This document shows positions 16,984-57,962 of a stretch of 64,000 nucleotides of DNA, piece after piece (within the stretch, counting starts at the first letter, position 1; each line of letters starts with the position of its first letter). Origin of the DNA: Terriglobia bacterium (GTDB lineage Bacteria > Acidobacteriota > Terriglobia > JAIQFV01); the NCBI GenBank assembly GCA_028716525.1, contig JAQUPQ010000007.1, positions 64,196-128,195 of the forward strand, written 5' to 3'. The translations under genes and the position numbers were made by a program. A model generated the notes under the pieces. The model was given only the letters and a program-made list of their open reading frames with translations, was not told the DNA's origin and searched no databases.

Positions 16984-17132
16984 TAAATTCCAAACTCCAA
17001 AATCCAAATAGATTCCAATTCCCAAATTACAAACAAAAGCGAACTTCCAATGAGCTTCCTTCTGGGATCTGTTTCGAATTTTGGAATTTGATCATTGGAG
17101 CTTATTTGGAATTTGGAGTTTGGAATTTGGAC
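16984..17132. repeat. long AT-rich imperfect inverted repeat built from TTGGAATTTGGA-like units (arms ~45 bp)
   Basis: Arm 16987-17030 (AAATTCCAAACTCCAAAATCCAAATAGATTCCAAT...) is the reverse complement of 17074-17132 (…ATTGGAGCTTATTTGGAATTTGGAGTTTGGAATTTGGA). Lies in the intergenic region between two minus-strand genes. Confidence 0.6.
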
Positions 17133-29114: not shown

Positions 29115-29422
29115 CAGCTTCATGATCGATATATTTCGACGCAAACAACCCACAGAGAGATGACACACATCATTTTCTCCGGCATTCCCGCGTTGATGCT
29201 GCACGGAAGTACTCTCCATAAACTGGGATAAGCAATTCTGACCCGATACGTGAGCCCCACTGGGCTGACCCGTCACCCGAGGGGTCGATAATGATGGCAG
29301 TCGCCATCGTGAACTGGCCGCTTTAATCACCACGCACTTGGCGAACCATCAGACCTCTTCCAAGGTCGAACCCGAGCTGAACTTCATCTGTCCCACCCTG
29401 TATCTTCTCCGCGCCAACTCCA

Positions 29423-29639: not shown

Positions 29640-31217
29640 GTGAATCTCAATATCTTGAACCGAATGGTGGTGGCTGTCGTAATCAGCACGGTGTCGTTGG
29701 TGGGATGGACCATACCGACCAACGCCCAGCAACCACCGCAGGAAGAGCAACAACCGCAGAAAGACCAGAAACAGCAGAAAGACAAAAATAAGGAGCAACC
29801 GCCGGCGCAGCAACAACCGCGCGGCCAACAGCAGCCCCAGCAAGATCAAAGCAAACAACCACACCAACAACCTGCTGAACGGCAACAGCAACCGGACCAG
29901 AACAAACAGCAGCAAGAGCAAGATAAACAGCAGCAAAAGGCCCGGCAGCAGGATCAGCAGAATAAACAGCAGGAACAACGGATTCAGCAGCAACAACAGC
30001 GGGTCCAACAGCAGCAACAGCAGGATCAGCAGAACAAACAGCAACAGCAGCAACAACAACAGCAACAGCGCGTTCAGCAGCAGGATCAGCAGAACAAACA
30101 GCAGGAACAACGGATTCAGCAGCAGCAACAGCGGGTGCAACAGCAGCAACAACAACAGCGCGTTCAGCAGCAGGATCAGCAGAACAAACAGCAGGAACAA
30201 CGGATTCAGCAGCAGCAACAGCGGGTGCAACAGCAGCAACAACAACAGCAACAGCAAAAGGACCAGCAGAATAGAGAGCAGCAACAACGCGTTCAGCAGC
30301 AACAGGATCAGCAGAATAGACAGCAACAGCAGCGCGTCCAGCAGCAACAACAACAGCAGCAGCAAAAGGACCAGCAGAATAGAGAGCAGCAACAGCGCGT
30401 CCAGCAGCAACAGGATCAGCAGAATAAACAGCAACAGCAGCGCGTCCAACAGCAACAACAACAGCAGCAGCAAAAGGACCAGCAGAATAGAGAGCAGCAA
30501 CAACGCGTTCAGCAGCAACAGCAGCAGCAGGCTAAGCAACAACAATGGCAGCGGGACCAAAATTGGCAACAGCGCGTACAGCAACAACAACAGCAAGACC
30601 AGAATCAGCAGCAAGCACGCCTCTCGCAACAGCGTCAACAGCAGCTTATTACGGAGCAACAGCAGCGTCTCACTCAGTACCGGCAAAATTTAGATCAGCA
30701 GCAGAGTGTCTGGCAGCGGCAAACATCAAATCTTCAGCGACAAGGGCGCACGGCTCAATACCGTTTTCAGCAGCAATATTGGGACAACGTACGCCAGCAG
30801 CGATTTCGTCTCAATGATCGCCACGATTACGACAATGATCCATACTTCTATACGGCTTGGAACTATCGTTACAAGCGGGGCAACCGCTACTACGAGACGA
30901 ATCAATACGGGGCCAATTTGCTTCGGGAGGCCGTGAGCTACGGTTATGAGCAAGGCTTCCTGGCCGGACAGGCAGACCGGCAGGATCGCTGGCGTTATAA
31001 CTACCAGGCCTCCTATGCCTATCAAGACGCGAACTACGGCTATGACGGTTTTTATGTAGCCCAGGATGAATACAACTATTACTTTCGGCAGGGTTTCCGT
31101 CGCGGCTATGAAGATGGCTACTACAGCCGCTATCGATACGGCAGCTATTCGAGCGGGAAGTACACAATCCTTGGCGCCATTGTGGGGTCAATCCTCGATA
31201 TGCAAGCGCTTCGCTAA
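29640..31217 (+). CDS. secreted Gln-rich tandem-repeat protein with Tyr/Arg/Asp-rich C-terminal domain
   Basis: GTG start after TAAGGAGG. Signal peptide MVVAVVISTVSLVGWTIPTNAQQ. About 380 aa of QQDQQNKQQEQRIQQQQQRVQQQQQQ-type repeats. C-terminal …YGYEQGFLAGQADRQDRWRYNYQASYAYQDANYGYDGFY… ends in hydrophobic TILGAIVGSIL. Confidence 0.7.
   Translation: MNLNILNRMVVAVVISTVSLVGWTIPTNAQQPPQEEQQPQKDQKQQKDKNKEQPPAQQQPRGQQQPQQDQSKQPHQQPAERQQQPDQNKQQQEQDKQQQKARQQDQQNKQQEQRIQQQQQRVQQQQQQDQQNKQQQQQQQQQQRVQQQDQQNKQQEQRIQQQQQRVQQQQQQQRVQQQDQQNKQQEQRIQQQQQRVQQQQQQQQQQKDQQNREQQQRVQQQQDQQNRQQQQRVQQQQQQQQQKDQQNREQQQRVQQQQDQQNKQQQQRVQQQQQQQQQKDQQNREQQQRVQQQQQQQAKQQQWQRDQNWQQRVQQQQQQDQNQQQARLSQQRQQQLITEQQQRLTQYRQNLDQQQSVWQRQTSNLQRQGRTAQYRFQQQYWDNVRQQRFRLNDRHDYDNDPYFYTAWNYRYKRGNRYYETNQYGANLLREAVSYGYEQGFLAGQADRQDRWRYNYQASYAYQDANYGYDGFYVAQDEYNYYFRQGFRRGYEDGYYSRYRYGSYSSGKYTILGAIVGSILDMQALR
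29945..30540 (+). repeat. near-perfect tandem DNA repeats (about three 90-nt units followed by about three 108-nt units) inside the Gln-rich gene
   Basis: Identical blocks occur at 30071 and 30161 (cgttcagcagcaggatcagcagaacaaacagcaggaacaacggattcagcagcagcaacagcgggtgcaacag…). Further blocks sit at 30254, 30362 and 30470 (agcaaaaggaccagcagaatagagagcagcaaca…). Confidence 0.8.
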
Positions 31218-38450: not shown

Positions 38451-38579
38451 TTCTATGTTTGATTGCTGTACCCTCGTCCGGAAAGATGTGGCTTTTCTGA
38501 GGGAGGCGTTGGGAAGTTGTCAAAACCAGATTACTCTTGCGATGACCGGTCGGTTTTGTGCAAGCATACGGAGGTTGTT

Positions 38580-39239
38580 ATGGCCCATCAGAAAAGTCAG
38601 CCGGCCGATTGGTCAGTCTTCTTGGCTGGGTTCCCCAGCGAGAAAACCGCTATCCAGTACGGCGCGAACCGCACGATCTTCTCGGAAGGAGAACCCGCGA
38701 ATTCCGTCTTTTACCTTCGAAAAGGCAAGGTGGATCTCGGCGTGACATCGAAGCATGGAAAAGCAGCGATCCTCGCCCATGTGGGCCCCGGTGAGTTCTT
38801 CGGCGAAGGATGTCTCGCCGGCCAGCGATTGCGCATCGCCACGGCTACCACGATGACCCATTGCAAGCTGGTCAGGATTGCCAAGCCGCTGATGGCGCGC
38901 CTGCTCCACGAACAACACGGTTTCTCGGAATTGTTCCTCACGCATCTGCTTTCACGCAACATCCGATCCAAAGTGGATCTCGTCGATCAGCTCTTCAACT
39001 CCACCCAGAAGCGTCTGGCTCGGACTCTCTTGCTGCTGGCTCATTTTGGCAAGGAGAGCCGGGCCGAAAGTGTACATCCCAGAATCAATCAGGAAGACCT
39101 GGCGCGAATGGTCGGCATATCTCGGTTGCGGATCAGTAATTTCATGAAGAAGTTCAAGAAGCTGGGCTATGTCGATTACACCGGCAGCGGTGGGTTGACG
39201 GTTCGTAGTGGCCTTTTGAGCGTGATCCTGCACGACTAG
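38580..39239 (+). CDS. Crp/Fnr family transcriptional regulator (paralog A)
   Basis: cNMP-binding-like beta-roll (…FYLRKGKVDLGVTSKHGKAAILAHVGPGEFFGEGCLAG…). C-terminal HTH EDLARMVGISRLRISNFMKKFKKLGYVDY. No N-terminal Cys cluster. Confidence 0.8.
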   Translation: MAHQKSQPADWSVFLAGFPSEKTAIQYGANRTIFSEGEPANSVFYLRKGKVDLGVTSKHGKAAILAHVGPGEFFGEGCLAGQRLRIATATTMTHCKLVRIAKPLMARLLHEQHGFSELFLTHLLSRNIRSKVDLVDQLFNSTQKRLARTLLLLAHFGKESRAESVHPRINQEDLARMVGISRLRISNFMKKFKKLGYVDYTGSGGLTVRSGLLSVILHD

Positions 39240-41132: not shown

Positions 41133-41556
41133 AAATGTTCATCCCCTTTACGGAAGGCAAACACCCGGATGGGGTCCGCGGAAATTACGAAGGGCTCAAC
41201 AGGGAACAGGCGCGAGGGCAATCTGTGGGTAGCCGAAGAAGGCTTAATTTGGCGCTATTCACCCGTTGAAGGCAATGGGAGCGGAATTCGGATTTCTCAA
41301 AGCCGCTTCAGATTAGCAACTGCCATCATTGGATTCGGAAACGCGGTAGCGCGTGGCCCTAACAAGTTTCAGTAGTTACTCATTTTGAAAATTTCTTTGC
41401 CGGGGTGAGGGTGCCGCAAATTTATTTCAAAATGAGTCACTACCCAAAGCTCTCATTACGAGGAGCGCAGAGCACCGAACCCATCACGGAATGGAGGCCG
41501 GGTTTGCGGAGGATAAGGGCCGCAAAAATACTCGCATTCCCTACTGCGGGGATGCT

Positions 41557-42112: not shown

Positions 42113-42268
42113 ATGTCAAAAACGAAAAAACCGAAAACTCATTTTCAGCAGGTTCCGCTGGAGATAGTCAAAGTTATCGCTGAACAAGAAATTCCGGACG
42201 ATAAATTGATGGGAAACAACGTGACCGTGAAACCTCCTCAAAAGAGGAAGAGCAGAAGGCTGTCATGA
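42113..42268 (+). CDS. small basic hypothetical protein (possible leader ORF)
   Basis: MSKTKKPKTHFQQVPLEIVKVIAEQEIPDDKLMGNNVTVKPPQKRKSRRLS. Its stop overlaps the start of the Crp/Fnr gene. Confidence 0.25.
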   Translation: MSKTKKPKTHFQQVPLEIVKVIAEQEIPDDKLMGNNVTVKPPQKRKSRRLS

Positions 42269-43026
42269 TGAGCAAACGAATTTCTATCGGAAGATCCTCC
42301 TTCAGCAAGCAGGGGGATGCTGTTACGGCGCGCAACAAAAAAAGGAAACCCGAGGTTATCACGGCAAATCAGAAGAACCAGTCTGTCGATTGGGAAGCCC
42401 TCCTTGCTGGAATCAACGGAGGGAAAACCGTGCTTGAATACACCGCAAACCGCATCATCTACCGGCAGGGAGATCCTGCGGATTCCGTTTTTTATCTCCG
42501 ACGAGGCAAGGTGAAGCTGACGGTGACATCCCAGGAGGGCAAGGAAGCGATCGTCGCCATTCTGGGCGCCGGTGAGTTCTTCGGCGAGGGATGTCTTGCA
42601 GGCCAACTGTTGCGCGTTTCAACGGTTGTCGCGATGAGCGATTGCTCTTTTGCCCGGATTGAAAAGCCGCGGATGGCGCGCATGCTCCACGAGCAGCACG
42701 ACATTTCGGAATTGTTCGTCACGCACCTGCTTTCACGCAACATCCGCTATGAAGAGGATCTGGTCGACCAGCTTTTCAACTCCAGCGAGAAACGCCTGGC
42801 CCGGATTCTTTTGCTGCTGGCTCATTTTGGCAAGGAAGGCCGATCCGAAGCTGTCGTTCCCAGAATCAATCAGGAAAACTTGGCACAAATGGTGGGCACC
42901 ACGCGTTCGCGGGTCAGTCATTTCATGAACAAGTTCCGAAAGCTTGGCTTTGTCGATTACGACGGCCCTACCGGCGGCGGGTTGATGGTCCATAGTGGTC
43001 TCCTCAGCGTGATCTTGCAAGACTAG
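42265..43026 (+). CDS. Crp/Fnr family transcriptional regulator (paralog B, with Lys/Arg-rich N-terminal extension)
   Basis: Alignable along its whole length with the 38580 gene (shared runs GEFFGEGCLAGQ, SELF(L/V)THLLSRNIR, LLLLAHFGKE, HTH …RSRVSHFMNKFRKLGFVDY). Carries a ~35-aa basic N-extension. Confidence 0.8.
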   Translation: MMSKRISIGRSSFSKQGDAVTARNKKRKPEVITANQKNQSVDWEALLAGINGGKTVLEYTANRIIYRQGDPADSVFYLRRGKVKLTVTSQEGKEAIVAILGAGEFFGEGCLAGQLLRVSTVVAMSDCSFARIEKPRMARMLHEQHDISELFVTHLLSRNIRYEEDLVDQLFNSSEKRLARILLLLAHFGKEGRSEAVVPRINQENLAQMVGTTRSRVSHFMNKFRKLGFVDYDGPTGGGLMVHSGLLSVILQD

Positions 43027-45116: not shown

Positions 45117-47771
45117 ATGTCACTTCGGCTCGCAATAAAAATCGGTTGTGCATTGTTTGTTCTTCTACTCGGGAGCGCAACGCCACTCTTGGCCCAGGGA
45201 TCGGTTTATTATTTCCCCCAGTTTGTAGATGGACGATGTTGTGGCGGCTTTTTCAGTTCGGCGCTTTCGTTCAGCAATGTGGGTTCCAACACAAACACCG
45301 TGACGATTCAGTTTTTCAAGTCGGATGGGACAGCTTGGGCTGTGGACTTTCGAGGTCTTGATCGACCGGATGCGGCAGGACGGGTGTCCACGACCACCTT
45401 CACGCTTACTCCGGGTGAATCGGCGCAATTTTTCACGGGAGGATTTGATCCATTGACCGTGGGATGGGCGAAGATCCAGACAGCCTTTCCACTCGGGGTC
45501 TCCGAAACAATCACCTTCGGGCACACCACCGGTTCCGTGGTCTTTACCAATTGGGCGGCCGGCGTTCTGGCCGGACCGACGGCCACACAATTCTCTTTCT
45601 TTGCGGATGTCAGCAGCACTTCCTATCTTTCAGCCGACATCAACATGGGGTTTGCCCTTGCCAATCCCAGCGGCGCGACCGCAACCGTTACCGCGACACT
45701 CCTGAATCGCAGCGGAGCTCCGGTCAGGAAACGATTGGGATCGGACATCATCATTGCGCCCAAGACGATCACGCTTTTGCCAAACCAGCAGACCTCTATG
45801 TTCGTCAATCAACTGTTCAATGATTTCACCTTTCCTTCAACTTTCCACGGCATGGTGCGGCTTTCAAGCAATGTGAATGTTGCCGTCGTAGTGCTGCAGG
45901 ATGTTTTGAGCCCCGGGGGTGACATCTTCTCCACGGTAGCGGTCAATCCGGATTCCACCCTCGGGACCAATATCTTCTACGATCGTGAGCCGAATGATAC
46001 CCTCGGGACGGCGCAAGCGATTACCTTGCCGGCACGAATCATCGGAACGATGAATTCGCCCACCGACACCGCCGACACAGATTGCTTCTCATTCACGCTG
46101 CAGGCTGGACAGACCGTTTCAATTTTGACTGCGGCCAGCCTGATTGGATCTCCGCTCGACGATGTGATTCTTCTGTTCAATTCTTTCGGCACACAGGTCG
46201 CGATGAACGACAACTTTTCACCTCCATTGCTCGACCCGTTTGTAAGTTACCAGGCGCCGTCCATGGGAACTTATACGGCGTGTCATCAAGGCACGAATGG
46301 AACGAGTTCACGCAACTCGTATTATGAATTGTTGATCAATACGGAGCCGCCCACAATCGTGCCGCCCCCTCGTTTTGCGGTGATTTCCACAGTCCCCACC
46401 AATGGCGCCGCAGGCGTGCCTATCAGTCAGCAAATCACGGCAACTTTCAATCAAGCGCTGAACTGTTCAACGGTCACCACATCCACCTTTACCGTGAGTG
46501 GACCCGTCGGGGCTCCTGTGACAGGAACCATCCTCTGCGCCGGCACGAGCGCGACCTTTACGCCGACAAGCAGTCTCGCAACCAACACCACATTCAATGC
46601 CACGATTGCAACCGGGGCAATTAGTGCGACGGGCGCAATACTGGCGGGCAACTATGTATGGACCTTTACAACAGGTTCGACTTTAGACACCACCCCACCC
46701 ACCGTAACTTCCACGGACCCTGCTAATGGCGCCACTGGTGTGTGTACTAACAGGACCGTCAACGCCACCTTCAGTAAGGCGATGGACCCCTCGACGATCA
46801 GTACCACAACCTTTATGCTGGCAGGACCTGGCAGCGCGCCTGTAACAGGATCGGTCTCCTACAATGTAAGCAGCAACGTTGCAACCTTTACGCCGGCGAG
46901 CAGTCTCGCAACCAATACGACCTACACTGCTACGATCACGCCCGGGGCCACCGATCTGGCAGGCAACGCACTGACAAGCAACTTTGTATGGATGTTTACC
47001 ACAAGCCCGACGACATGTCAGACGCCGGTTGGCCTTGGAGCGGCCGCCTCGTTCGGGAGTTTCGGAGGTGGCGCGGGGATGACCAATCAGGGGACTCGTT
47101 CGGTGGTGAATGGGGATATTGGGACCACAGGTGCTTCGACTACGGTAACGGGATTCCACGATGCGGGGCCGGGATGTATATACACTGAGACCCCGCTTAA
47201 TGTTGGATCAGTCACTGGGAAAATATACACCGCTCCCCCGCCTCCTACGATTGCGTGTCCTTCTGAAGGAACTGCTGCCACCTTCGCGATCGCAACCCAG
47301 GCCGCATCCGATGCGCTGAATGCGTATAACGCCCTCGCTGCCCGACCGGGAGGTCCAGATCCCGGCTCCGGCCAGCTCGGCGGGCTCGTCCTCGCTCCTG
47401 GAATCTATACAGCCGCCTCGGGCAGTTTCCTGATAACGGGATCGGATCTCACGCTTGACGCCATGGGCGACTCAAATGCTGTCTGGGTCTTTCAGATGGC
47501 AACTTCACTGACGGTGGGCGCTGCGGGGGCCCCTCGCAGCGTGATCTTGGTCAACGGCGCCCAAGCTAAGAACGTCTATTGGCAGGTCGGCAGCGCCGCG
47601 ACGATCAATGGAGCTGGGGGCGGGACCATGGTGGGAACCATCATCGCTAGAGCAGGAGTTACGTTCTCGACTGCCGGCAACGTGACGATTACGACGCTGA
47701 ACGGCAGAGCGTTGGGACTGAACGCATCAGTGACAATAGTGAACACGGTTATTAACGTACCTGCTCCGTAA
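45117..47771 (+). CDS. large secreted multidomain protein: N-terminal domain, PPC (pre-peptidase C-terminal)-like domain, two Ig-like domains, and C-terminal DUF3494 ice-binding-like beta-helix domain
   Basis: Signal peptide. [39 protein letters not shown]… is PPC-like. Two repeated [14 protein letters not shown]…[17 protein letters not shown] Ig-like units. C-terminus …[56 protein letters not shown]… is typical of DUF3494. Confidence 0.65.
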
Positions 47772-51121: not shown

Positions 51122-52600
51122 ATGATGACAAATCCAAACGACAGGCAGCACCGCTCCATCCTGCAACGAATTGCCCATCGGGCGATGCTTGAAAGAGGAC
51201 TGGCCCCAGATTTTCCGCCCCAGGCGCTCGCCGAGCTCGACGCAATCCACGGGCCGGCGACGCGAGTTGATGGATCGACGCGTGATCTCCGAAACCTGCT
51301 CTGGTGCTCCATCGACAACGATGATTCGCGTGATCTGGACCAGTTGACCGTCGCCGAAGCCCGCCAAGAGGGGGCCGTGAAGGTTCTTGTCGCCGTTGCG
51401 GATGTCGACGCTGTCGTCAAAAAGCAATCGGCCCTTGACGATCATGCGCGGCAAAACACCACTTCGGTCTACACGGCGGCTGAGACGTTTCCGATGCTGC
51501 CTGAGAAACTCTCCACGGATTTGACCTCTCTCAACCTGGAGTCGGACCGCCTGGCCATCGTCATCGAAATGGTTCTCGCCGGAGATGGATCGCTTCAGAG
51601 TTCGGACGTTTATGGAGCAACGGTGCGCAGTCGTGCCAAGCTGGCTTACAACAGCGTTGCCGGCTGGCTGGAAGGAAACGGGCCGATTCCACAAGGAATT
51701 AGCGCGGTCGGGGGTCTCGACGAGAATCTTCGACTCCAGGATCGTGCGGCCCAGAAGCTGAAAGCGCTCCGGCACCTCAACGGGGCGCTGGATCTCGAAA
51801 CCATCGAAGCACGTCCGGTCTTTGACGGAGAGGAGCTCAAGGACTTGGAAGTCGATAAAAGAAACAGGGCGAAAGACATTATTGAGGACTTCATGATCGC
51901 GGCCAACGGCGTAACCGCACGATACCTCGCGGCGAAAAAATTTCCGTCGCTCCGGCGCGTCGTCCGCGTTCCCAAACGCTGGGACCGGATCATCGAGCTT
52001 GCCGCGGAACACGGCACAACGTTGCCCCAGGAACCCGACTCCAAAGCCCTGGATCAATTCCTGGTATCGGCAAAAGCTGCGGATCCGCTCCGCTTCCCCG
52101 ATCTCTCTCTCAGTGTCATCAAGCTTCTGGGCGCCGGTGAATACGTCGTCGAAATTCCGGGAGCGACTGTCGCCGGGCACTTCGGTCTGGCGGTCAAAGA
52201 CTATGCTCACTCCACTGCCCCGAACCGCCGATACCCCGATCTGATTACTCAGCGTTTGCTGAAAGCGGCCATGGCAGGAGGTTCCCTTCCCTACGAAAAC
52301 GACGAATTGGATGCGCTCGCCAAGCACTGCACCGAAGAGGAAGACGCCGCGAAGAAGGTTGAACGGCAGGTCACAAAATCCGCCGCCGCGATGCTGCTGG
52401 AATCGAGGATCGGCGAGCAGTTCGATGCCATCGTCACCGGCGCCTCGGACAAAGGGACGTGGGTCCGTCTTTTGCATCCGCCCATTGAAGGAAGACTGGT
52501 GAGCGGTCTTGAAGGCATGGACGTCGGCCACCGGCTCCGCGTGCAATTGGTTCGGACGGATGTGGAGCGCGGATATATCGATTTTAAGAGAGTGGCGTAA
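51122..52600 (+). CDS. RNB-domain exoribonuclease (RNase II/R family) with C-terminal S1 domain
   Basis: …LLWCSIDNDDSRDLDQLTVAE… catalytic-region pattern. C-terminal S1-like segment …GTWVRLLHPPIEGRLV…. Confidence 0.75.
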   Translation: MMTNPNDRQHRSILQRIAHRAMLERGLAPDFPPQALAELDAIHGPATRVDGSTRDLRNLLWCSIDNDDSRDLDQLTVAEARQEGAVKVLVAVADVDAVVKKQSALDDHARQNTTSVYTAAETFPMLPEKLSTDLTSLNLESDRLAIVIEMVLAGDGSLQSSDVYGATVRSRAKLAYNSVAGWLEGNGPIPQGISAVGGLDENLRLQDRAAQKLKALRHLNGALDLETIEARPVFDGEELKDLEVDKRNRAKDIIEDFMIAANGVTARYLAAKKFPSLRRVVRVPKRWDRIIELAAEHGTTLPQEPDSKALDQFLVSAKAADPLRFPDLSLSVIKLLGAGEYVVEIPGATVAGHFGLAVKDYAHSTAPNRRYPDLITQRLLKAAMAGGSLPYENDELDALAKHCTEEEDAAKKVERQVTKSAAAMLLESRIGEQFDAIVTGASDKGTWVRLLHPPIEGRLVSGLEGMDVGHRLRVQLVRTDVERGYIDFKRVA

Positions 52601-52755
52601 GCAGTGGTGGATTGAAGGTGGGCCAACATTGCGCCATCTGGTGCATGCGAGAGGGTGATCCGCATTGAACGGGCGGCAGAAATCGGTTCGCCGAGGCACT
52701 CCCTCCCGTTCGATTGTCTCGTGCAAGCCAGTGGCTCAAGGTTTTCGGCACTTAC

Positions 52756-53337
52756 TCATTGCTGCCTCCTGACCCCCAAAAGTTGCGCCGGGTAGACGCC
52801 GAAGTTTTCGATTTCGATCACGTTCTGTTTGTTAAAATGAATCTTCGCTGCCGCAAAAAGCGTCCCGCCCATTCCCTTGGCCTCTTCTACAAACAGTTCA
52901 ATGTACGTGAATGGATAATCTTTGGAGCGTGTCCCGTAGCGCGCCTCGAAAAAACTGAGCCAGCGTTCGAAGACGATAGTGTACGTTCGCCCGTTCGGGT
53001 TCTGGTGGACGCGCACGGTGTTGATATCATGGCTGATTTGGCCATCGAGCGCGAATGTGCCCTTCTTTTCCTTGGCGATGGCCTTGAGCAAGGCATCCTC
53101 ACCCTGTGACTTTAGAATGCGCGCGAATTTTCGTGCGTCCTCGTCCGACGTGTATCCTTCAATCGTGAGGGTGAATCCTCGCGAGACCAAGTTTCCTCCC
53201 GGTCCGATGCCGGCGACCGTGCCTGTAAACACTTCCTTGGACGGCCGGGCTTGAGCGTTGCAGGTCCGCGGAAAAATGCTGACCATCCCAAGACCGCAGA
53301 ACATCAGGATCACAACAACGAATAGTTTTGCTCTCAT
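52756..53337 (-). CDS. secreted hypothetical protein
   Basis: Signal/TM segment MRAKLFVVVILMFCGLGMVSI. No family recognised. Confidence 0.4.
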   Translation of the reverse strand: MRAKLFVVVILMFCGLGMVSIFPRTCNAQARPSKEVFTGTVAGIGPGGNLVSRGFTLTIEGYTSDEDARKFARILKSQGEDALLKAIAKEKKGTFALDGQISHDINTVRVHQNPNGRTYTIVFERWLSFFEARYGTRSKDYPFTYIELFVEEAKGMGGTLFAAAKIHFNKQNVIEIENFGVYPAQLLGVRRQQ

Positions 53338-53511
53338 CTTGCCTCCAATCCCTGAAATCGGTCATTCACGACAAGGAACCACCCCTCCGGATCTTCGGCA
53401 CGATCGAAGCCGGGTCGCGAGTTTAGCTTTCGATAGTCGTGGGTGACGAAGCTATCGAAACACACTCGCCCCTGCCTCTCTGGCGGATTGGGGAGGAGGG
53501 CTCGGCGACTT

Positions 53512-53715
53512 TCAAGGCTGCGCTTTGTGAAAGGCGTACAAGAAGACCACAACACTCAGGCCGGCGAAGGCATAGATGAAAGATGTCAACACTCTCGCGG
53601 CAGGAATCAAACCTCGCACAACGCCTAACACATCACCGATCAGACCCGCGATCAACAGGATCGTCACCAGAACCATGCCCACAAGCGCCAGAAATGAACT
53701 TTTCTTCAGTGTCAT
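53512..53715 (-). CDS. small two-TM membrane protein (hypothetical)
   Basis: MTLKKSSFLALVGMVLVTILLIAGLIGDVLGVVRGLIPAARVLTSFIYAFAGLSVVVFLYAF. Confidence 0.3.
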   Translation of the reverse strand: MTLKKSSFLALVGMVLVTILLIAGLIGDVLGVVRGLIPAARVLTSFIYAFAGLSVVVFLYAFHKAQP

Positions 53716-53788
53716 AATCAAAGTATGAACTCGTCAATTCCCCTAGTAATGCTACGTGCTGTTCAGACGCCTGATACAGACAGAGCGC

Positions 53789-54598
53789 CTACTTCTTGTG
53801 GCGCTTTGGTTTTAGGAACACAGCGGCTGCGCGTTCCAGGACGCGGAAGGCGAACGACTCGGTCAGGTAGAGGTAGACCTTATGTTTGTCGTGACCCTCG
53901 TATCCGATCGACAGATCCTGTCCCACGCTGAGCTGAAAGTCGCCCCCGCGATGCGAGAGCAGCACGGCGCCATCGACCTTTGGCGCCAGAACCATCGGCC
54001 CGTCAAGGAAGTGCTCGACGCGCTCACGGATCGGGTAGCCATCCTGCGCGGCCTGGGCCAAACCCGCATAACAGTTCGGTCCAAGCGCCAAGGCATAGGG
54101 TCCATTGATGCCCGCGCGCCGCAGCGTCTCGACGGCGTCCACCACGACGGACGGATAGTCCGCATAATCGTCCGGGATGGCAATGGCCGGATGCAAGGTC
54201 GTAGGGATGATACCCTCAATGCCTCCGGCTTTGAAGCCGTTGAAGATGGCGTTGTCCTCGGCATGCGCTGTCTTCTCCGCGGCACTTACCACCGCTGGAA
54301 GGTCCAGCACAGCGCCGCGCGATGCGTTGTCGAGTTCCATGATTGACAGCTCGAACGGCACTCGCACCTCGATCAAAGGCGCCACCTCGCGCACGCCCCA
54401 CGGCACGCCAAGGTCGCCGTCGGTTCGGATGGTCAGGTGGCCCGTGTTGACCGAGGCATACCTCCACCCGTGCGGGCCGTCGAAATCAACCAGCTTGCGT
54501 CCCGCCAGGTTGAGCTGGAGCACCCGCTTGGCTTCGTCGTCGATTTGCTTCCAGGCTTCGGGCGTAATCGGCGCATGATCGCGCTTCAATAGATCCAT
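53789..54598 (-). CDS. family 1 encapsulin nanocompartment shell protein (Linocin M18-like)
   Basis: MDLLKRDHAPITPEAWKQIDDEAKRVLQLNLAGRKLVDFDGPHGWRYASVNTGHL… is typical of the HK97-fold encapsulin N-terminus. 269 aa. Confidence 0.85.
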   Translation of the reverse strand: MDLLKRDHAPITPEAWKQIDDEAKRVLQLNLAGRKLVDFDGPHGWRYASVNTGHLTIRTDGDLGVPWGVREVAPLIEVRVPFELSIMELDNASRGAVLDLPAVVSAAEKTAHAEDNAIFNGFKAGGIEGIIPTTLHPAIAIPDDYADYPSVVVDAVETLRRAGINGPYALALGPNCYAGLAQAAQDGYPIRERVEHFLDGPMVLAPKVDGAVLLSHRGGDFQLSVGQDLSIGYEGHDKHKVYLYLTESFAFRVLERAAAVFLKPKRHKK

Positions 54599-54601
54599 GT
54601 C

Positions 54602-54964
54602 TCACTTTCCTTTCATGCTGGCGATGCCGAGTGTCTCGGTGGCCACGGGGGCAGGGCCGTCGGTTCCTGCGCCCTTCTCAATTCCAGCGATCGGCTGCTC
54701 GGTGAACAGGTACTTGTGCATCATCTCGTTGAAGTGGTCGCTGTGACGGCGGATCCACTCCATAAGCATCGTGGCGTGCTCAATCTCTTCGTTCTTGTTG
54801 TGCAGCAGCACGTCCTTCAACTGCGGATCGGAACACGCGTCGGCGCGTTGCTGATACCAGTCGATCGCCTCCAGCTCCTCCATCAGGCTGACGATCGCGC
54901 GGTGCATATTGCGCGTGTCCTCGGGCAGGAGATCGAGCGATTCGTGGTACGCGGTACTTGCCAT
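54602..54964 (-). CDS. encapsulated ferritin-like cargo protein (EncFtn) with C-terminal encapsulin targeting peptide
   Basis: Ferritin-like EExxH motifs (…MEELEAIDWYQQRA…NKNEEIEHATMLMEWI…). C-terminal …TETLGIASMKGK matches the SLGIGSLKG-type cargo-loading peptide. It lies 3 nt upstream of the shell gene. Confidence 0.8.
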   Translation of the reverse strand: MASTAYHESLDLLPEDTRNMHRAIVSLMEELEAIDWYQQRADACSDPQLKDVLLHNKNEEIEHATMLMEWIRRHSDHFNEMMHKYLFTEQPIAGIEKGAGTDGPAPVATETLGIASMKGK

Positions 54965-55141
54965 ATGATTATTCCTCTTACGCTTGCCGACGCACCGGGA
55001 CCGGTGCATCGAAGCTATGAATCTCGACCGGTTAGACCGCCTCCAGCGCGAGGTCTTTCTCAAGGCTCTATTCGCTTGGAGGAACGCGTTGCTCATCCCC
55101 CGACACGCGCCTCGCACCAGATCCTCGCGGAGAGCTCGTAA

Positions 55142-55213
55142 GACACTTCTTATACCTTGGGGATAGTGCGCGTCAGTTCAAAACTGTTCACGTGCATGAT
55201 CAAGATTGCTCAT
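55142..55213 (-). promoter_or_regulatory. copy 6 of the conserved promoter module (minus strand), upstream of the EncFtn-encapsulin operon
   Basis: Reverse complement reads ATGAGCAATCTTGATCATGCACGTGAACAGTTTTGAACTGACGCGCACTATCCCCAAGGTATAAGAAGTGTC. Lies ~180 nt upstream of the EncFtn start. Confidence 0.65.
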
Positions 55214-55324
55214 TCCGCCGCCAAGGTCTCGCAGGGCATGATCGGTTCGTTCTGCCCCCGGGGATGCAGGCCGCTGCAGCAACCTGTTACGCGACGAGCT
55301 CCGTTGTTCTTAATGGGCCCGCCA

Positions 55325-55966
55325 CTAGCTGGCGTTCTGTAGGGCGAATTCCCAGTTGATCAGCTTGTCAAGCACGGCATTAACATAGTCGGCACGACGA
55401 TTCTGATAATCCAGGTAGTAAGCATGCTCCCACACGTCAATGGTAAGCAGTGGCTTCATGCCCGTTGTCAAAGGGACATCGGCATTGGCGGTCTTGACCA
55501 CCTTGAGGCTACCTCCCTCGAGGACAAGCCAAGCCCAACCGCTCCCGAACTGTGAAACGGAGGCGCCGGCAAACTCCTTCTTGAAGGCGTCGACGCTGCT
55601 GAAGGATTCCTCGATTCTCTGCTTGAGTGCAGCAGGCGGTTCGCCTCCGCCCTTCGGTTTCATGCTTTTCCAATAAAACGTGTGGTTCCAAGTTTGCGCC
55701 GCGTTGTTGAAGATCGCGATTCTTTCCGGCCGTCCGGCGGTACTGGTAATAATCTTTTCCAATGACAGGTCGGCATATTCTGTTCCTGCAACGAGTTTGT
55801 TCAGGTTGTCCACATAGCCTCTGTGATGTTTCCCATAGTGAAAACTAATCGTCTTGGCCGTTATGATTGGTTCAAGTGCGTTTTCGGCATATGGAAGAGG
55901 GGGTAAGACGTGATGCGGCGCTGCTCCATGCACGGTCGAGGAATAGCCCGTGTCTTTCTTGGTCAT
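55325..55966 (-). CDS. Fe/Mn-family superoxide dismutase
   Basis: …[32 protein letters not shown]…[14 protein letters not shown]…[15 protein letters not shown]… Start ATG 55966 preceded by AAGGAG. Confidence 0.85.
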
Positions 55967-56052
55967 ATCGATCTCCTTAGGGTTGGTGGGTGACACATAA
56001 CGCATGGCATCAGGGCTTGCCGCGGTTAGCGGCAATATTCTGCATGTTGTTG

Positions 56053-56454
56053 TTAGCCGCCCTTTTTCTTTTCTTCGTTGTCTTTCTTGCTTTTTCTGTA
56101 TTCCTCCAGAATCTGTTTCAACCACTCGCCACTGCGCAATTCTTTTCCTTCCTTTGTCCTGATCATGTAGGGTTCGCCCGAGAGAATGCTCTTGGTGGCA
56201 GCAAGGCGGATGAAATCTTCCGGTGTCTTGATCCTGTTTTTGAAATACGAATACTTGCTTCTCAAGTGATCCGACGCTCGTTGACCGGTGTAGGATTGGC
56301 CGTTCCGAATAAAGGTACAATCGGATTGGGCAACGAAAGCCAACAGATAAGCAACCGTGTCATCGGTGTCTTTCTGAGGTCTTGTATCTTGAGCAACGGC
56401 CATAGTCGCAGCAAGAACAGTTGTGATGGCTACAATGATTAAGTTTCTGTGCAT
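56053..56454 (-). CDS. DUF5329 family secreted protein
   Basis: Signal [23 protein letters not shown]. …[55 protein letters not shown]… matches the DUF5329 pattern. It lies directly upstream of SOD on the same strand. Confidence 0.55.
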
Positions 56455-56674
56455 CTTCTCTGCTCGGCTAACTTCTAAGCCCATGGTCTCGAGATGAACC
56501 CATCATCCGGTTTTCCGCCCCGATAACACTGCGATCGAAAACTTGACCCATCCCTCTTTCGTCAACTGATGGGGGTATTTCTGTTTTTATCATGCGCTTA
56601 TAAGGTTTCCATCTAACACGCTTGCGATCGGACTCAAAGAATGCCTACCAGGCTACATACGCCTCAGCGAATTA

Positions 56675-56752
56675 GCGTGCATGTCCTTTATATCCACGGG
56701 CGAAGCGCGTGTCGGTTCAGTACTGCTCACACACCTGGTCAACATTGCTCAG
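56675..56752 (-). promoter_or_regulatory. copy 7 of the conserved promoter module (minus strand; variant closest to copy 4), upstream of the DUF5329-SOD operon
   Basis: Reverse complement reads CTGAGCAATGTTGACCAGGTGTGTGAGCAGTACTGAACCGACACGCGCTTCGCCCGTGGATATAAAGGACATGCACGC. It shares the 16-mer CGACACGCGCTTCGCC and downstream ATTCGCTGAG with copy 4. Confidence 0.65.
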
Positions 56753-56969
56753 ACAGGCAAAATGCCCCGATGGTATTGTGCGTCTGGGAGCCCCTAGGAG
56801 AACTGGAAGGCGTCGCGCCTCAGCGCCACGGAGGATGCCGCGACGATGGACGTGCTCTGGCGAAACCCATCGCGAGTTCATGCCCGAGTTCGGTGCGCCG
56901 TCCGGATATCCGCACTCGTTGGCAGCGTTCCTGGCGCTCTACCTGCAGGGCCCTCGTATTTAATAATGC

Positions 56970-57962
56970 TTGTTTGCCATGGTGAACGGCGAAAGTAAGA
57001 CCGATAGGAAAAAGAAGGCCCGAGCACGCTGGATCTCCTGGCTCTTCGGGTTGGCGATCCTGCTGGCCGTCGCCTTGTTCGCAGCCCATCGGAGCGAGGG
57101 GCAGGAGTTTGCGCGGCTCGTGACTCACGCTCGGCCTGTTTGGTTGCTCGTCGCCCTTTTGCTCCAGATGGGAACCTACGTGACGGACGCCCGGATCTGG
57201 CAGCGAGTCCTTGACCGCGCGAATATATCGAGACCGCTCCGCTCCTATGTGGGTTTGGCGCTGGCGAAGCTCTTCATGGACCAGGCCATTCCAAGCGTTG
57301 GCCTGAGCGGCACGTTGCTCGTCATCCGTGCACTGGACCGTCGCGGCGTGCCGCGCCGTGCCAGCATGGCCTTGGTCGTCATCGATCTCGTGAGCTACTA
57401 CGCCGCTTACATTGTGGCTCTGGGCATCGCTCTCGGCATCGTCTGGGCACGCGGAGACCTCACCCCGTTGATGGCCGTGCCAGCGGTCATCTTCGCGCCC
57501 ATGGCTGCAGCCGTTCCCGTGGCCCTCCTGTGGGTAAGCCGCGGCCGGAAGCTGCCCCGTTGGCTCAAGCGGCTACCCTTCATCAAGCCAGCAGTTCGAG
57601 CACTTGGTAAGGCCACGCCAGCCATTGCTCACGATGCCTGGCTCATCACGCGGTGCACGGGCCTCCAGTTCGCGATCCTCGCGTTCGATGCGGGGACACT
57701 CTGGATCATGCTGTGGGCCCTCGGTCTTGCGGTCAATCCAGCACCAGTGTTTGCGAGCTTCATGCTCTCCACGCTGGCGCGGACGCTAGGAGTGATTCCT
57801 GGAGGGCTTGGGGTTTTCGAGGCCGTCTCCGTGGCCACGCTCAAGCTCATCGGAGTGCCGGTCGCTGCCGGTCTCGCGGCGACACTCCTCTTCCGCTTCT
57901 TCACCTTCTGGCTGCCCATGGCGCCCGGGCTGATCCTCGCGCGGCGTGAGGTAAGGGCCTGA
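56970..57962 (+). CDS. flippase-like (lysylphosphatidylglycerol-synthase TM region / UPF0104) membrane protein
   Basis: 8 predicted TM helices. …LFMDQAIPSVGLSGTLLVIRALDRRGV… pattern of the LPG_synthase_TM family. Confidence 0.6.
   Translation: MFAMVNGESKTDRKKKARARWISWLFGLAILLAVALFAAHRSEGQEFARLVTHARPVWLLVALLLQMGTYVTDARIWQRVLDRANISRPLRSYVGLALAKLFMDQAIPSVGLSGTLLVIRALDRRGVPRRASMALVVIDLVSYYAAYIVALGIALGIVWARGDLTPLMAVPAVIFAPMAAAVPVALLWVSRGRKLPRWLKRLPFIKPAVRALGKATPAIAHDAWLITRCTGLQFAILAFDAGTLWIMLWALGLAVNPAPVFASFMLSTLARTLGVIPGGLGVFEAVSVATLKLIGVPVAAGLAATLLFRFFTFWLPMAPGLILARREVRA

Follow-up and report, generated by a model that had tools for sequence, protein, structure and literature searches.

An encapsulated-ferritin cassette and a superoxide dismutase gene pair, each behind a copy of one promoter module, in a Terriglobia bacterium

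The window analysed here is a stretch of 64,000 nt from a Terriglobia bacterium (contig JAQUPQ010000007.1), and all coordinates given below are window positions. In its table of open reading frames, four genes follow one another on the minus strand in the 5' to 3' order DUF5329 protein, Fe/Mn-family superoxide dismutase (SOD), encapsulated ferritin (EncFtn) and family-1 encapsulin. The best explanation, held with moderate confidence, is that these genes make up two adjacent units, DUF5329 to SOD and EncFtn to encapsulin, each preceded by its own copy of a promoter cassette (the module) that is widespread in the lineage and activated under stress by Crp/Fnr-family regulators. An initial annotation of this DNA had described an encapsulin operon and a SOD operon, each driven by the same stress module. 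Its observation is confirmed and its interpretation is partly supported: the gene identities, the targeting peptide of the cargo and the shared module stand, and operon extents, promoter use and the stress signal are predictions.

The EncFtn-encapsulin cassette

The shell gene (53789..54598, minus strand; 269 aa) matches PF04454 at E 1.5e-87 and scores 294.9 bits for NCBIfam encap_f1 (NF041155; cut-off 100). The cargo gene, coding for an EncFtn (encapsulated ferritin / Flp cargo) of 120 aa (54602..54964, minus strand, start at 54964), scores 139.3 bits for TIGR04535 (ferrit_encaps; cut-off 125) and 133.2 bits for PF22277 (E 2.8e-39; cut-off 27). Confirmation of both assignments by hidden Markov models (HMMs) had been left to later work by the initial annotation, and both now lie above the curated cut-offs. 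The short distance that it gave between EncFtn and the Linocin-M18-type shell gene can be read directly in the sequence, with 3 nt between the EncFtn stop and the encapsulin ATG (...AAG TGA gac ATG). HMM scores, adjacency and the targeting peptide described below thus bear out, at sequence level, a canonical two-gene family-1 EncFtn/encapsulin system.

Comparison with solved structures places both proteins close to well-described relatives. The shell matches 23 solved family-1 shells at E < 1e-50, the nearest being the Haliangium ochraceum encapsulin 7ODW (E 3.4e-85, 55% identity), and the cargo shares 62% identity with H. ochraceum EncFtn (7OE2/5N5F). The ferroxidase motifs EELEAIDWY and NEEIEH (EEIEH) align residue for residue with those of H. 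ochraceum and R. rubrum EncFtn (the patterns EELEAxDWY and EExEH are identical to those of H. ochraceum), and all residues of the ferroxidase centre (Glu, Glu, His of ExxH, plus Tyr) are present. The order of EncFtn followed by shell is likewise that of H. ochraceum (7ODW, 7OE2, 5N5F) and of the Flp systems in PMC8346489. Points of departure are the host, a member of Terriglobia (Acidobacteriota), and the presence upstream of a dedicated module promoter and a SOD gene.

The C-terminal targeting peptide of EncFtn, TETLGIASMKGK (54605..54640, minus strand), is preceded by a Gly/Ala/Pro-rich linker, as the C-terminal LGIxS(L/M)K peptide of H. ochraceum and Flp cargo is preceded by a disordered one. 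A solved encapsulated ferritin-like cargo has a ...SLGIGSLKG tail, with which TLGIASMKGK of the window peptide aligns. In ~20 homologues from other metagenome-assembled genomes (MAGs) the core TLGIGSMKGK is nearly invariant; the window copy carries a G-to-A change, and the peptide thus differs from H. ochraceum and Flp systems in having Ala where Gly is usual and Met in place of Leu. The targeting peptide named in the initial annotation is therefore recovered with its core kept as TLGI(G/A)SMKGK, and cargo loading is predicted from it. By homology, EncFtn decamers would enter the shell, expected to be of T=1 type with 60 subunits from the 55% identity to 7ODW, through the C-terminal TLGIASMKGK, and the loaded EncFtn would oxidise Fe2+ and lay down ferric mineral in the shell, thereby removing Fenton-active iron.

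A ferritin-like cargo within an encapsulin, with a proposed role in protection from oxidative stress, is also described for EncA-EncBCD of Myxococcus xanthus (McHugh 2014, cited in PMC8346489). The M. xanthus shell is of the larger EncA type, entries of which the window shell matches at E ~1e-9 only; furthermore, some of the M. xanthus cargo genes lie dispersed, and the system is not known to share a promoter cassette. In structural and biochemical terms the window encapsulin is a fresh example of a well-known kind, ordinary in these respects and bringing no new principle. The added value lies in the promoter cassette, its recruitment of an encapsulated ferritin, and a recurrent linkage of SOD with small ferritins.

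The DUF5329-SOD gene pair

The two genes upstream adjoin each other on the same strand, as initially annotated, and each passes its curated family cut-off. The DUF5329 gene (56053..56454, minus strand; 133 aa) matches PF17263 at E 3.8e-29 (101.2 bits vs 27) and has 133-aa homologues at 80-92% identity. Its start is most likely the second ATG (56454), since this yields a signal-peptide-like N-terminus and the alternative upstream ATG (56484) is absent from the closest relative, L155. The SOD gene (55325..55966, minus strand; 213 aa; PF00081 and PF02777) begins 86 nt past DUF5329, with its start at 55966 and an AAGGAG ribosome-binding site 7 nt upstream. It carries neither a signal peptide nor a targeting peptide, and the metal-ligand motifs HYGKHH, WNHTFYW and DVWEHAYY are visible in the translation. 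NCBIfam scores are higher for Fe-SOD (237.5 bits) than for Mn-SOD (168.7 bits), both under their equivalog cut-offs, which suggests an Fe-type enzyme; by homology, this cytoplasmic SOD would remove superoxide. A Terriglobia/Acidobacteriia MAG has an annotated protein with 100% identity to this SOD, and the window is assigned to that group on this basis.

The promoter module

Upstream of each gene pair lies one copy of the same cis-module (length ~70 nt), in agreement with the initial annotation. A 45-nt degenerate pattern from both upstream regions fits copies 6 and 7 with 0 mismatches (0.00 expected by chance); the copies begin at 55212 and 56751, both on the gene strand. Copy 7 (56687..56751, minus strand; 78.5 bits with a position weight matrix, PWM) consists of box A (56751-56736; TGAGCAATGTTGACCA), box B (56729-56714; TGAGCAGTACTGAACC), a -35-like CCGACA (56715-56710) and the -10 box TATAAA (56692-56687), with a transcription start predicted near 56680, ~226 nt ahead of the DUF5329 ATG. 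Copy 6 (55149..55212, minus strand; 50.3 bits) has box A at 55212-55197 (TGAGCAATCTTGATCA), box B at 55190-55175 (TGAACAGTTTTGAACT), a -35-like CTGACG (55176-55171) and the -10 box TATAAG (55154-55149); its predicted start lies near 55142, ~178 nt ahead of the EncFtn ATG, and its -10 box ends ~185 nt before that ATG, close to the ~180 nt first noted.

The PWM scan yields nine copies in the window, all within 29.2-56.8 kb and scoring 31-87 bits, and a shuffled window gives nothing above -5 bits. The initial count of seven copies misses a good one at 40395-40325 (minus strand; 81 bits), which has 1 nt inserted ahead of its -10 box and precedes a YflT-like gene (40301-39669), and a weak one at 29229-29310 (plus strand; 31.6 bits), 195 nt upstream of copy 29424. 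Beyond the window, a metagenome scan with a 19-base-specified pattern found at least 120 further stretches (L026-L145) in peat, wetland, soil and sediment, and 143 distinct full-length instances (window plus metagenome matches listed) were used to build a logo. Module positions 7, 9, 15, 21-22, 25, 28-30, 32, 35, 40-44 and 57-63 are conserved in it even though the search pattern left them free, the intervening spacers are unconserved, and conservation ends 7-8 nt past the TATAA(G) box. Since conservation at discrete positions stops at this distance from the TATAAG box, the module is read as a promoter with protein-binding sites. A dispersed repeat or relic of a mobile element was rejected on the same features, namely discrete conserved positions, free spacers and an end at the predicted start.

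The consensus module runs from box A (TGAGCAaTtTTGACCA) through a 6-nt spacer to box B (TGAGCmgTAcTGaACT), a -35-like CTGACA, a further spacer and TATAAg. The boxes are two tandem 16-bp TGAGCA-N4-TGAMC elements, of which box B overlaps the -35-like CTGACA by 2 bp, and 16-17 nt separate the latter from the sigma-70-type -10 TATAAG. With the start predicted 7 nt past the -10 (module positions 59-64), the boxes are centred at ~-41.5 (box B) and ~-63.5 (box A). Dyad symmetry extends to 4/6 outer positions in box A; in box B the centre (CAGTACTG) is palindromic and the ends are asymmetric, and both boxes read equally well as direct repeats. Readings of the module as an ECF-type (GAAC...CGT) or a sigma-54 (GG-N10-GC) promoter were discarded, as no matching -10/-12 element occurs at the required spacing. 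The module promoters were passed over by a consensus promoter scan, which accepts only T as the last base of the -10 box.

In class II and tandem promoters of the CRP/FNR family, a site centred at -41.5 with a second one ~22 bp upstream is activating. The module resembles such Escherichia coli promoters in its 16-bp site at ~-41.5 (relative to the predicted start), which abuts the -35, and in its second site two helical turns upstream. It differs in the half-sites, which read TGAGC / GAMC(A/T) and are weakly palindromic instead of TGTGA/TCACA (CRP) or TTGAT/ATCAA (FNR), and in a -35 that is good rather than poor. This last feature admits a different reading, in which the boxes are repressor operators and a strong sigma-70 promoter is held by the Crp/Fnr paralogues described below, or by another protein, and released under stress. 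The -35-like CTGACA and the -10 TATAAG, at 17 nt, each match 5/6 positions of the consensus, box B abuts the -35 with its 2-bp overlap, and conservation runs on into the spacer (ACGCGAAT), all of which would suit a repressor. The box positions, however, reproduce the classic activating geometry, most members of the CRP/FNR family are activators, and repressor operators more often cover the -10 or the start, where conservation is lowest here; repression is considered a live but improbable alternative, and activation by a Crp/Fnr-type protein is preferred.

Crp/Fnr paralogues as candidate regulators

Two genes for Crp/Fnr-family regulators, at 38463..39239 (paralogue 1) and 42265..43026 (paralogue 2), both on the plus strand and with PF00027 and PF13545 matches, lie inside the module cluster and share 71% DNA identity (repeat family D4). 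Paralogue 1 is the last gene of a same-strand run that begins at module copy 37043(+), a position that would allow its positive autoregulation; module copy 43264(+) begins 238 nt past the stop codon of paralogue 2. A 24-nt inverted repeat (TTTCAGTAGTTACTCATTTTGAAA / TTTCAAAATGAGTCACTACCCAAA; 88% complementary, 34 nt apart) at 41367-41448, between copy 41141(-) and paralogue 2, may be an operator or a terminator.

The linkage recurs outside the window. Among the 120 module-selected contigs listed, which were chosen solely for carrying the module, 35 contain Crp/Fnr homologues (43-83% identity; 38 genes in 534 kb), and 32 of these 38 genes are followed by a same-strand module at 67-71 or 220-276 nt, a pattern into which paralogue 2 fits with its 238 nt. 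Such tight linkage of cognate Crp/Fnr-family genes to their sites is in line with the CRP/FNR paradigm. The nearest solved relatives of the paralogues are the mycobacterial and corynebacterial CRP/GlxR (E ~1e-17). Their recognition helix, TRSRVSH, differs from those of CRP and FNR and is without equivalents of E181 and R185 in CRP. Because of the regulator-module linkage and the -41.5/-63.5 geometry, a Crp/Fnr-type activator is the best candidate for the protein that reads the module: dimers of the linked regulators would bind boxes A and B and activate transcription.

Stress-responsive, effector-independent regulators of the CRP/FNR family have been described in SdrP of Thermus thermophilus and DdrI of Deinococcus radiodurans (PMC12040651), which act on stationary-phase and oxidative-stress genes, a likeness that here concerns gene content. 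By analogy with these two, the window regulators would respond to a signal of stationary phase or general stress, and control may be exerted through regulator abundance, as one paralogue ends a module-driven gene run. The window paralogues differ from SdrP and DdrI in that no close sequence relationship was found and the DNA motif is another one.

Other genes behind the module

Apart from the two gene pairs, modules in the window precede a Q-rich secreted protein, an RcnB-like protein followed by CsbD and Ysc84, DUF3309 with a small membrane protein, a YflT/GSP17M-like protein and a Zn-phospholipase C, and members of these families are found again behind modules of the metagenome contigs (among the matches listed). 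In the window and the contigs listed, genes behind the module are strongly biased to stress-type small proteins, with none of the housekeeping kind, a content typical of a general-stress or stationary-phase regulon. It is this gene content, as the sole basis, that makes the initial label of 'stress module' reasonable; the promoter-like character of the element and the stress-type nature of the other driven genes held up, and the word 'stress' comes from the content of the regulon. The event that activates the two gene pairs would also switch on CsbD, DUF3309, YflT-like, Ysc84 and other stress genes.

The Q-rich protein, encoded at 29640-31217 (plus strand) directly behind copy 29424, is a secreted protein of 525 aa that consists largely of Gln-rich 7-residue (21-nt) repeats (CAG/CAA repeat families, 32 copies); it matches no Pfam family and has homologues behind modules in L062 and L095. 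Adjoining the module cluster, though not behind a module, is a gene at 45117-47771 (plus strand) for an 884-aa secreted protein with Big_5 Ig-like domains and, at its C-terminus, an ice-binding-like domain (PF11999, E 1.4e-53). Elsewhere, at 16985-17128, there is an AT-rich inverted repeat unlike the rest of the window, with 49-nt arms of AAATTCCAAA-like units (84% complementary, 46 nt apart).

Conservation and extent of the two transcription units

Both arrangements are found in relatives. The order EncFtn-encapsulin is kept in >20 loci, and L002 (Terriglobia) and L003 (Acidobacteriota), two related MAGs, retain it together with the module. Their sequences match the window from the module onward, and what lies upstream of that is unrelated to it (in L003, a divergent xylose isomerase). 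The arrangement module-DUF5329-SOD is kept in one MAG, L155, which holds the closest DUF5329 relative (92% identity), the same divergent LPG-synthase neighbour and, at the same place, an orthologue of copy 7 (71 bits). The labels of MAGs with shells 75-95% identical to that of the window (L002-L022) range over Acidobacteriota, Binatia, delta proteobacterium, Anaerolineae, Vicinamibacteria and Myxococcota, which indicates either that the cassette was transferred horizontally or that MAGs were mis-binned or mislabelled.

Within each pair, the genes lie on the same strand at gaps of 86 nt and 3 nt and in conserved order, and co-transcription is predicted accordingly. The EncFtn-encapsulin unit may run on into two further genes. 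The first (hyp69; 53512..53715, minus strand), which starts 70 nt past encapsulin, codes for a small two-helix membrane protein of 67 aa, and the second (hyp193; 52756..53337, minus strand) for a secreted protein of 193 aa; neither matches a Pfam or NCBIfam family. A homologue of hyp69 follows encapsulin in L001 and L002, with further homologues in four of the module-selected contigs listed, and one of hyp193 (83% identity) lies directly after encapsulin in L003 (52-nt gap). Both may therefore be downstream members of the encapsulin transcription unit.

Several observations weigh against two module-driven, Crp/Fnr-activated units. A scan of the minus strand over 57100-53300 predicts no intrinsic terminator, although terminators without a U-tract would escape it. 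Copy 6 is among the weakest copies, and its box B reads TGAACA. The boxes read mainly as direct repeats and are only partly dyad-symmetric, which is atypical for CRP/FNR homodimers, and most copies have a core promoter near consensus (CTGACA, 17 nt, TATAAG), so that an activator might not be needed. The Crp-module linkage comes from contigs selected for a module, of which many may be orthologous loci, and regulator binding as well as transcription starts at the module are predicted from sequence. EncFtn, encapsulin and DUF5329 occur in none of the 120 module-selected metagenome contigs listed; two SOD matches do occur in these, neither of them downstream of a module. Furthermore, no module accompanies the SOD orthologues of L146-L154 (84-88% identity) or the DUF5329 homologues of L156-L159 (80-83% identity), which stand in other contexts. 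Given this absence from the contigs and the relatives without a module, the genes of the two pairs appear to be lineage-specific recruits to the regulon and not core members.

The missing terminator matters for the extent of the units, since it makes read-through from copy 7 into EncFtn-encapsulin, and onward into the two downstream genes, equally possible. In a single long unit, copy 7 would drive DUF5329, SOD, EncFtn and encapsulin, perhaps with the two downstream genes, and copy 6 would be an internal booster or inactive. All genes are on one strand, box A of copy 6 lies only 113 nt past the SOD stop, and the score of that copy is low (50 bits), which agrees with such a unit as does the terminator scan. 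The scan, however, is blind to U-tract-free terminators, and in L002 and L003 module-EncFtn-encapsulin stands alone with unrelated DNA upstream, so that copy 6 would be a self-sufficient 5' boundary there. One long unit is thus a possible but distinctly less favoured arrangement, and shared regulation of two units by the module is plausible.

The initial annotation had further tied the encapsulin to a stress regulon rather than to basal iron homeostasis. The only basis for that distinction is the absent Fur-box-like site: in neither upstream region does a site match more than 10/19 positions of the 19-bp Fur box, equal to the window background, and the consensus may not be that of Acidobacteriota, which makes it a weak negative. 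Ferritin-type systems are often iron-regulated, and the encapsulin operon could accordingly be governed mainly by Fur or an equivalent for basal iron homeostasis, with the module incidental; set against the background-level match, this is deemed very unlikely.

The EncFtn leader and the recurrent SOD-ferritin linkage

The conserved part of the EncFtn leader (GACCTCGCGCTG...ATG; 54965..55055, minus strand) was delimited by alignment with EncFtn loci of other MAGs. The region homologous to this block of ~90 nt begins, in L004 and L006, within the 3' end of an upstream SOD gene, and a relic of the SOD 3' end is found upstream of EncFtn in the window, L002, L003 and L022, the last of which has lost the SOD and keeps a longer relic. 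A 10-bp GC-rich hairpin or palindrome, CGAUGCACCG-GUCC-CGGUGCGUCG (54988..55011, minus strand), lies 24-47 nt before the EncFtn ATG and appears in both the minimum-free-energy and the centroid folds; it is kept in L002 and L003 and, within the SOD-EncFtn spacer, in L004 and L006, where the L006 copy has one A-U pair replaced by G-C in a compensatory change. Overall, the leaders do not fold with unusual stability (z = -1.16 for EncFtn, z = +1.05 for DUF5329), and only this local hairpin stands out. An Rfam scan of 52500-57500 (E <= 1) returned no RNA family, by which known riboswitches and small RNAs were ruled out for the leaders.

In four MAGs, a different SOD (35-37% identical to that of the window) lies directly upstream of EncFtn-encapsulin (L004, 4948-5496; L006, 1081-1629; L007, 2242-2811; L011, 4907-5473). 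Since the window leader is homologous to a region that begins in the 3' end of the SOD gene in L004/L006, the window cassette probably descends from a SOD-EncFtn-encapsulin operon, the SOD having been lost in the lineage of the window and a module promoter joined upstream. The SODs of these four loci end in an extra ...VR(T/K)LDL(A/G)L tail, which the window SOD does not have. As an encapsulin targeting peptide the tail (...VRTLDLAL in L004) was set aside as a low-probability idea, with no linker and a loose resemblance only, and a role of SOD as encapsulin co-cargo by way of the short LDL(A/G)L tail is much less likely than one as a functional partner of Flp encapsulins.

Orthologues of the window SOD have small ferritins of another type beside them. 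At four loci (L148, 4584-4886; L151, 898-1200; L152, 345-647; L153, 1288-1590), a 100-aa two-helix ferritin-like protein ('half-ferritin'; PF02915, with a weak PF22277 match) is encoded ~30-115 nt upstream of SOD; in L154 the last part of this gene (~100-150) can be seen ahead of SOD. An MPAFGSPFSGL motif marks the N-terminus of the half-ferritin, whose C-terminus lacks a targeting peptide. Altogether, SOD adjoins EncFtn or a half-ferritin in at least eight independent loci. A survey of family-1 encapsulins (PMC8346489) contains 0 occurrences of 'superoxide' and does not mention SOD, and a literature search found no paper linking encapsulins to SOD genes.

These loci bear on whether the neighbourhood of SOD and encapsulin has any functional meaning. 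The module may be a generic strong promoter of the lineage, with the adjacency a coincidence, as might be expected from the many SOD orthologues and DUF5329 homologues in contexts without a module and from the contigs listed, which have neither encapsulin nor SOD behind their modules. Pure coincidence is nevertheless a doubtful explanation, more so than repression, in view of the stress-biased gene content behind the modules, the repeated placement of SOD beside EncFtn or half-ferritin and the SOD relic shared by the window, L002, L003 and L022. The 'anti-Fenton pairing' proposed in the initial annotation thus gains from the recurrent SOD-small-ferritin loci in other MAGs, although the adjacency in this window could itself be coincidental.

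Implications for encapsulin regulation and oxidative-stress defence

To our knowledge, encapsulated ferritins are structurally well described and almost nothing is known of when cells express them; Acidobacteriota, for their part, are an abundant and poorly studied soil phylum. A literature search found no paper on an acidobacterial Crp/Fnr stress motif. The multi-copy promoter cassette with its strong candidate Crp/Fnr regulator is apparently undescribed, and its regulon is probably an undescribed stress regulon of the CRP/FNR type. Joined together, the observations allow a broader and more tentative proposal, to which we give slightly less than even weight. The module would be the signature promoter of a Terriglobia general-stress regulon, run by a dedicated Crp/Fnr subfamily (with an unusual recognition helix and an asymmetric TGAGCA-N4-TGAMC box), that has recruited an encapsulated ferritin; in parallel, SOD and small ferritins would form a recurrent cross-phylum partnership, including the SOD-EncFtn-encapsulin operons ancestral to the window cassette.

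A stress link of a ferritin encapsulin is unsurprising to specialists, and it is the regulon that provides a direct experimental handle: a multi-copy promoter cassette with a candidate regulator offers a testable means of approaching the regulation of Flp encapsulins in Acidobacteriota. The recurrent adjacency of SOD to EncFtn or half-ferritin supports a place for these nanocages in oxidative-stress defence beside superoxide removal, and not as iron stores alone; if the broader proposal is true, SOD would be a functional partner of Flp encapsulins.

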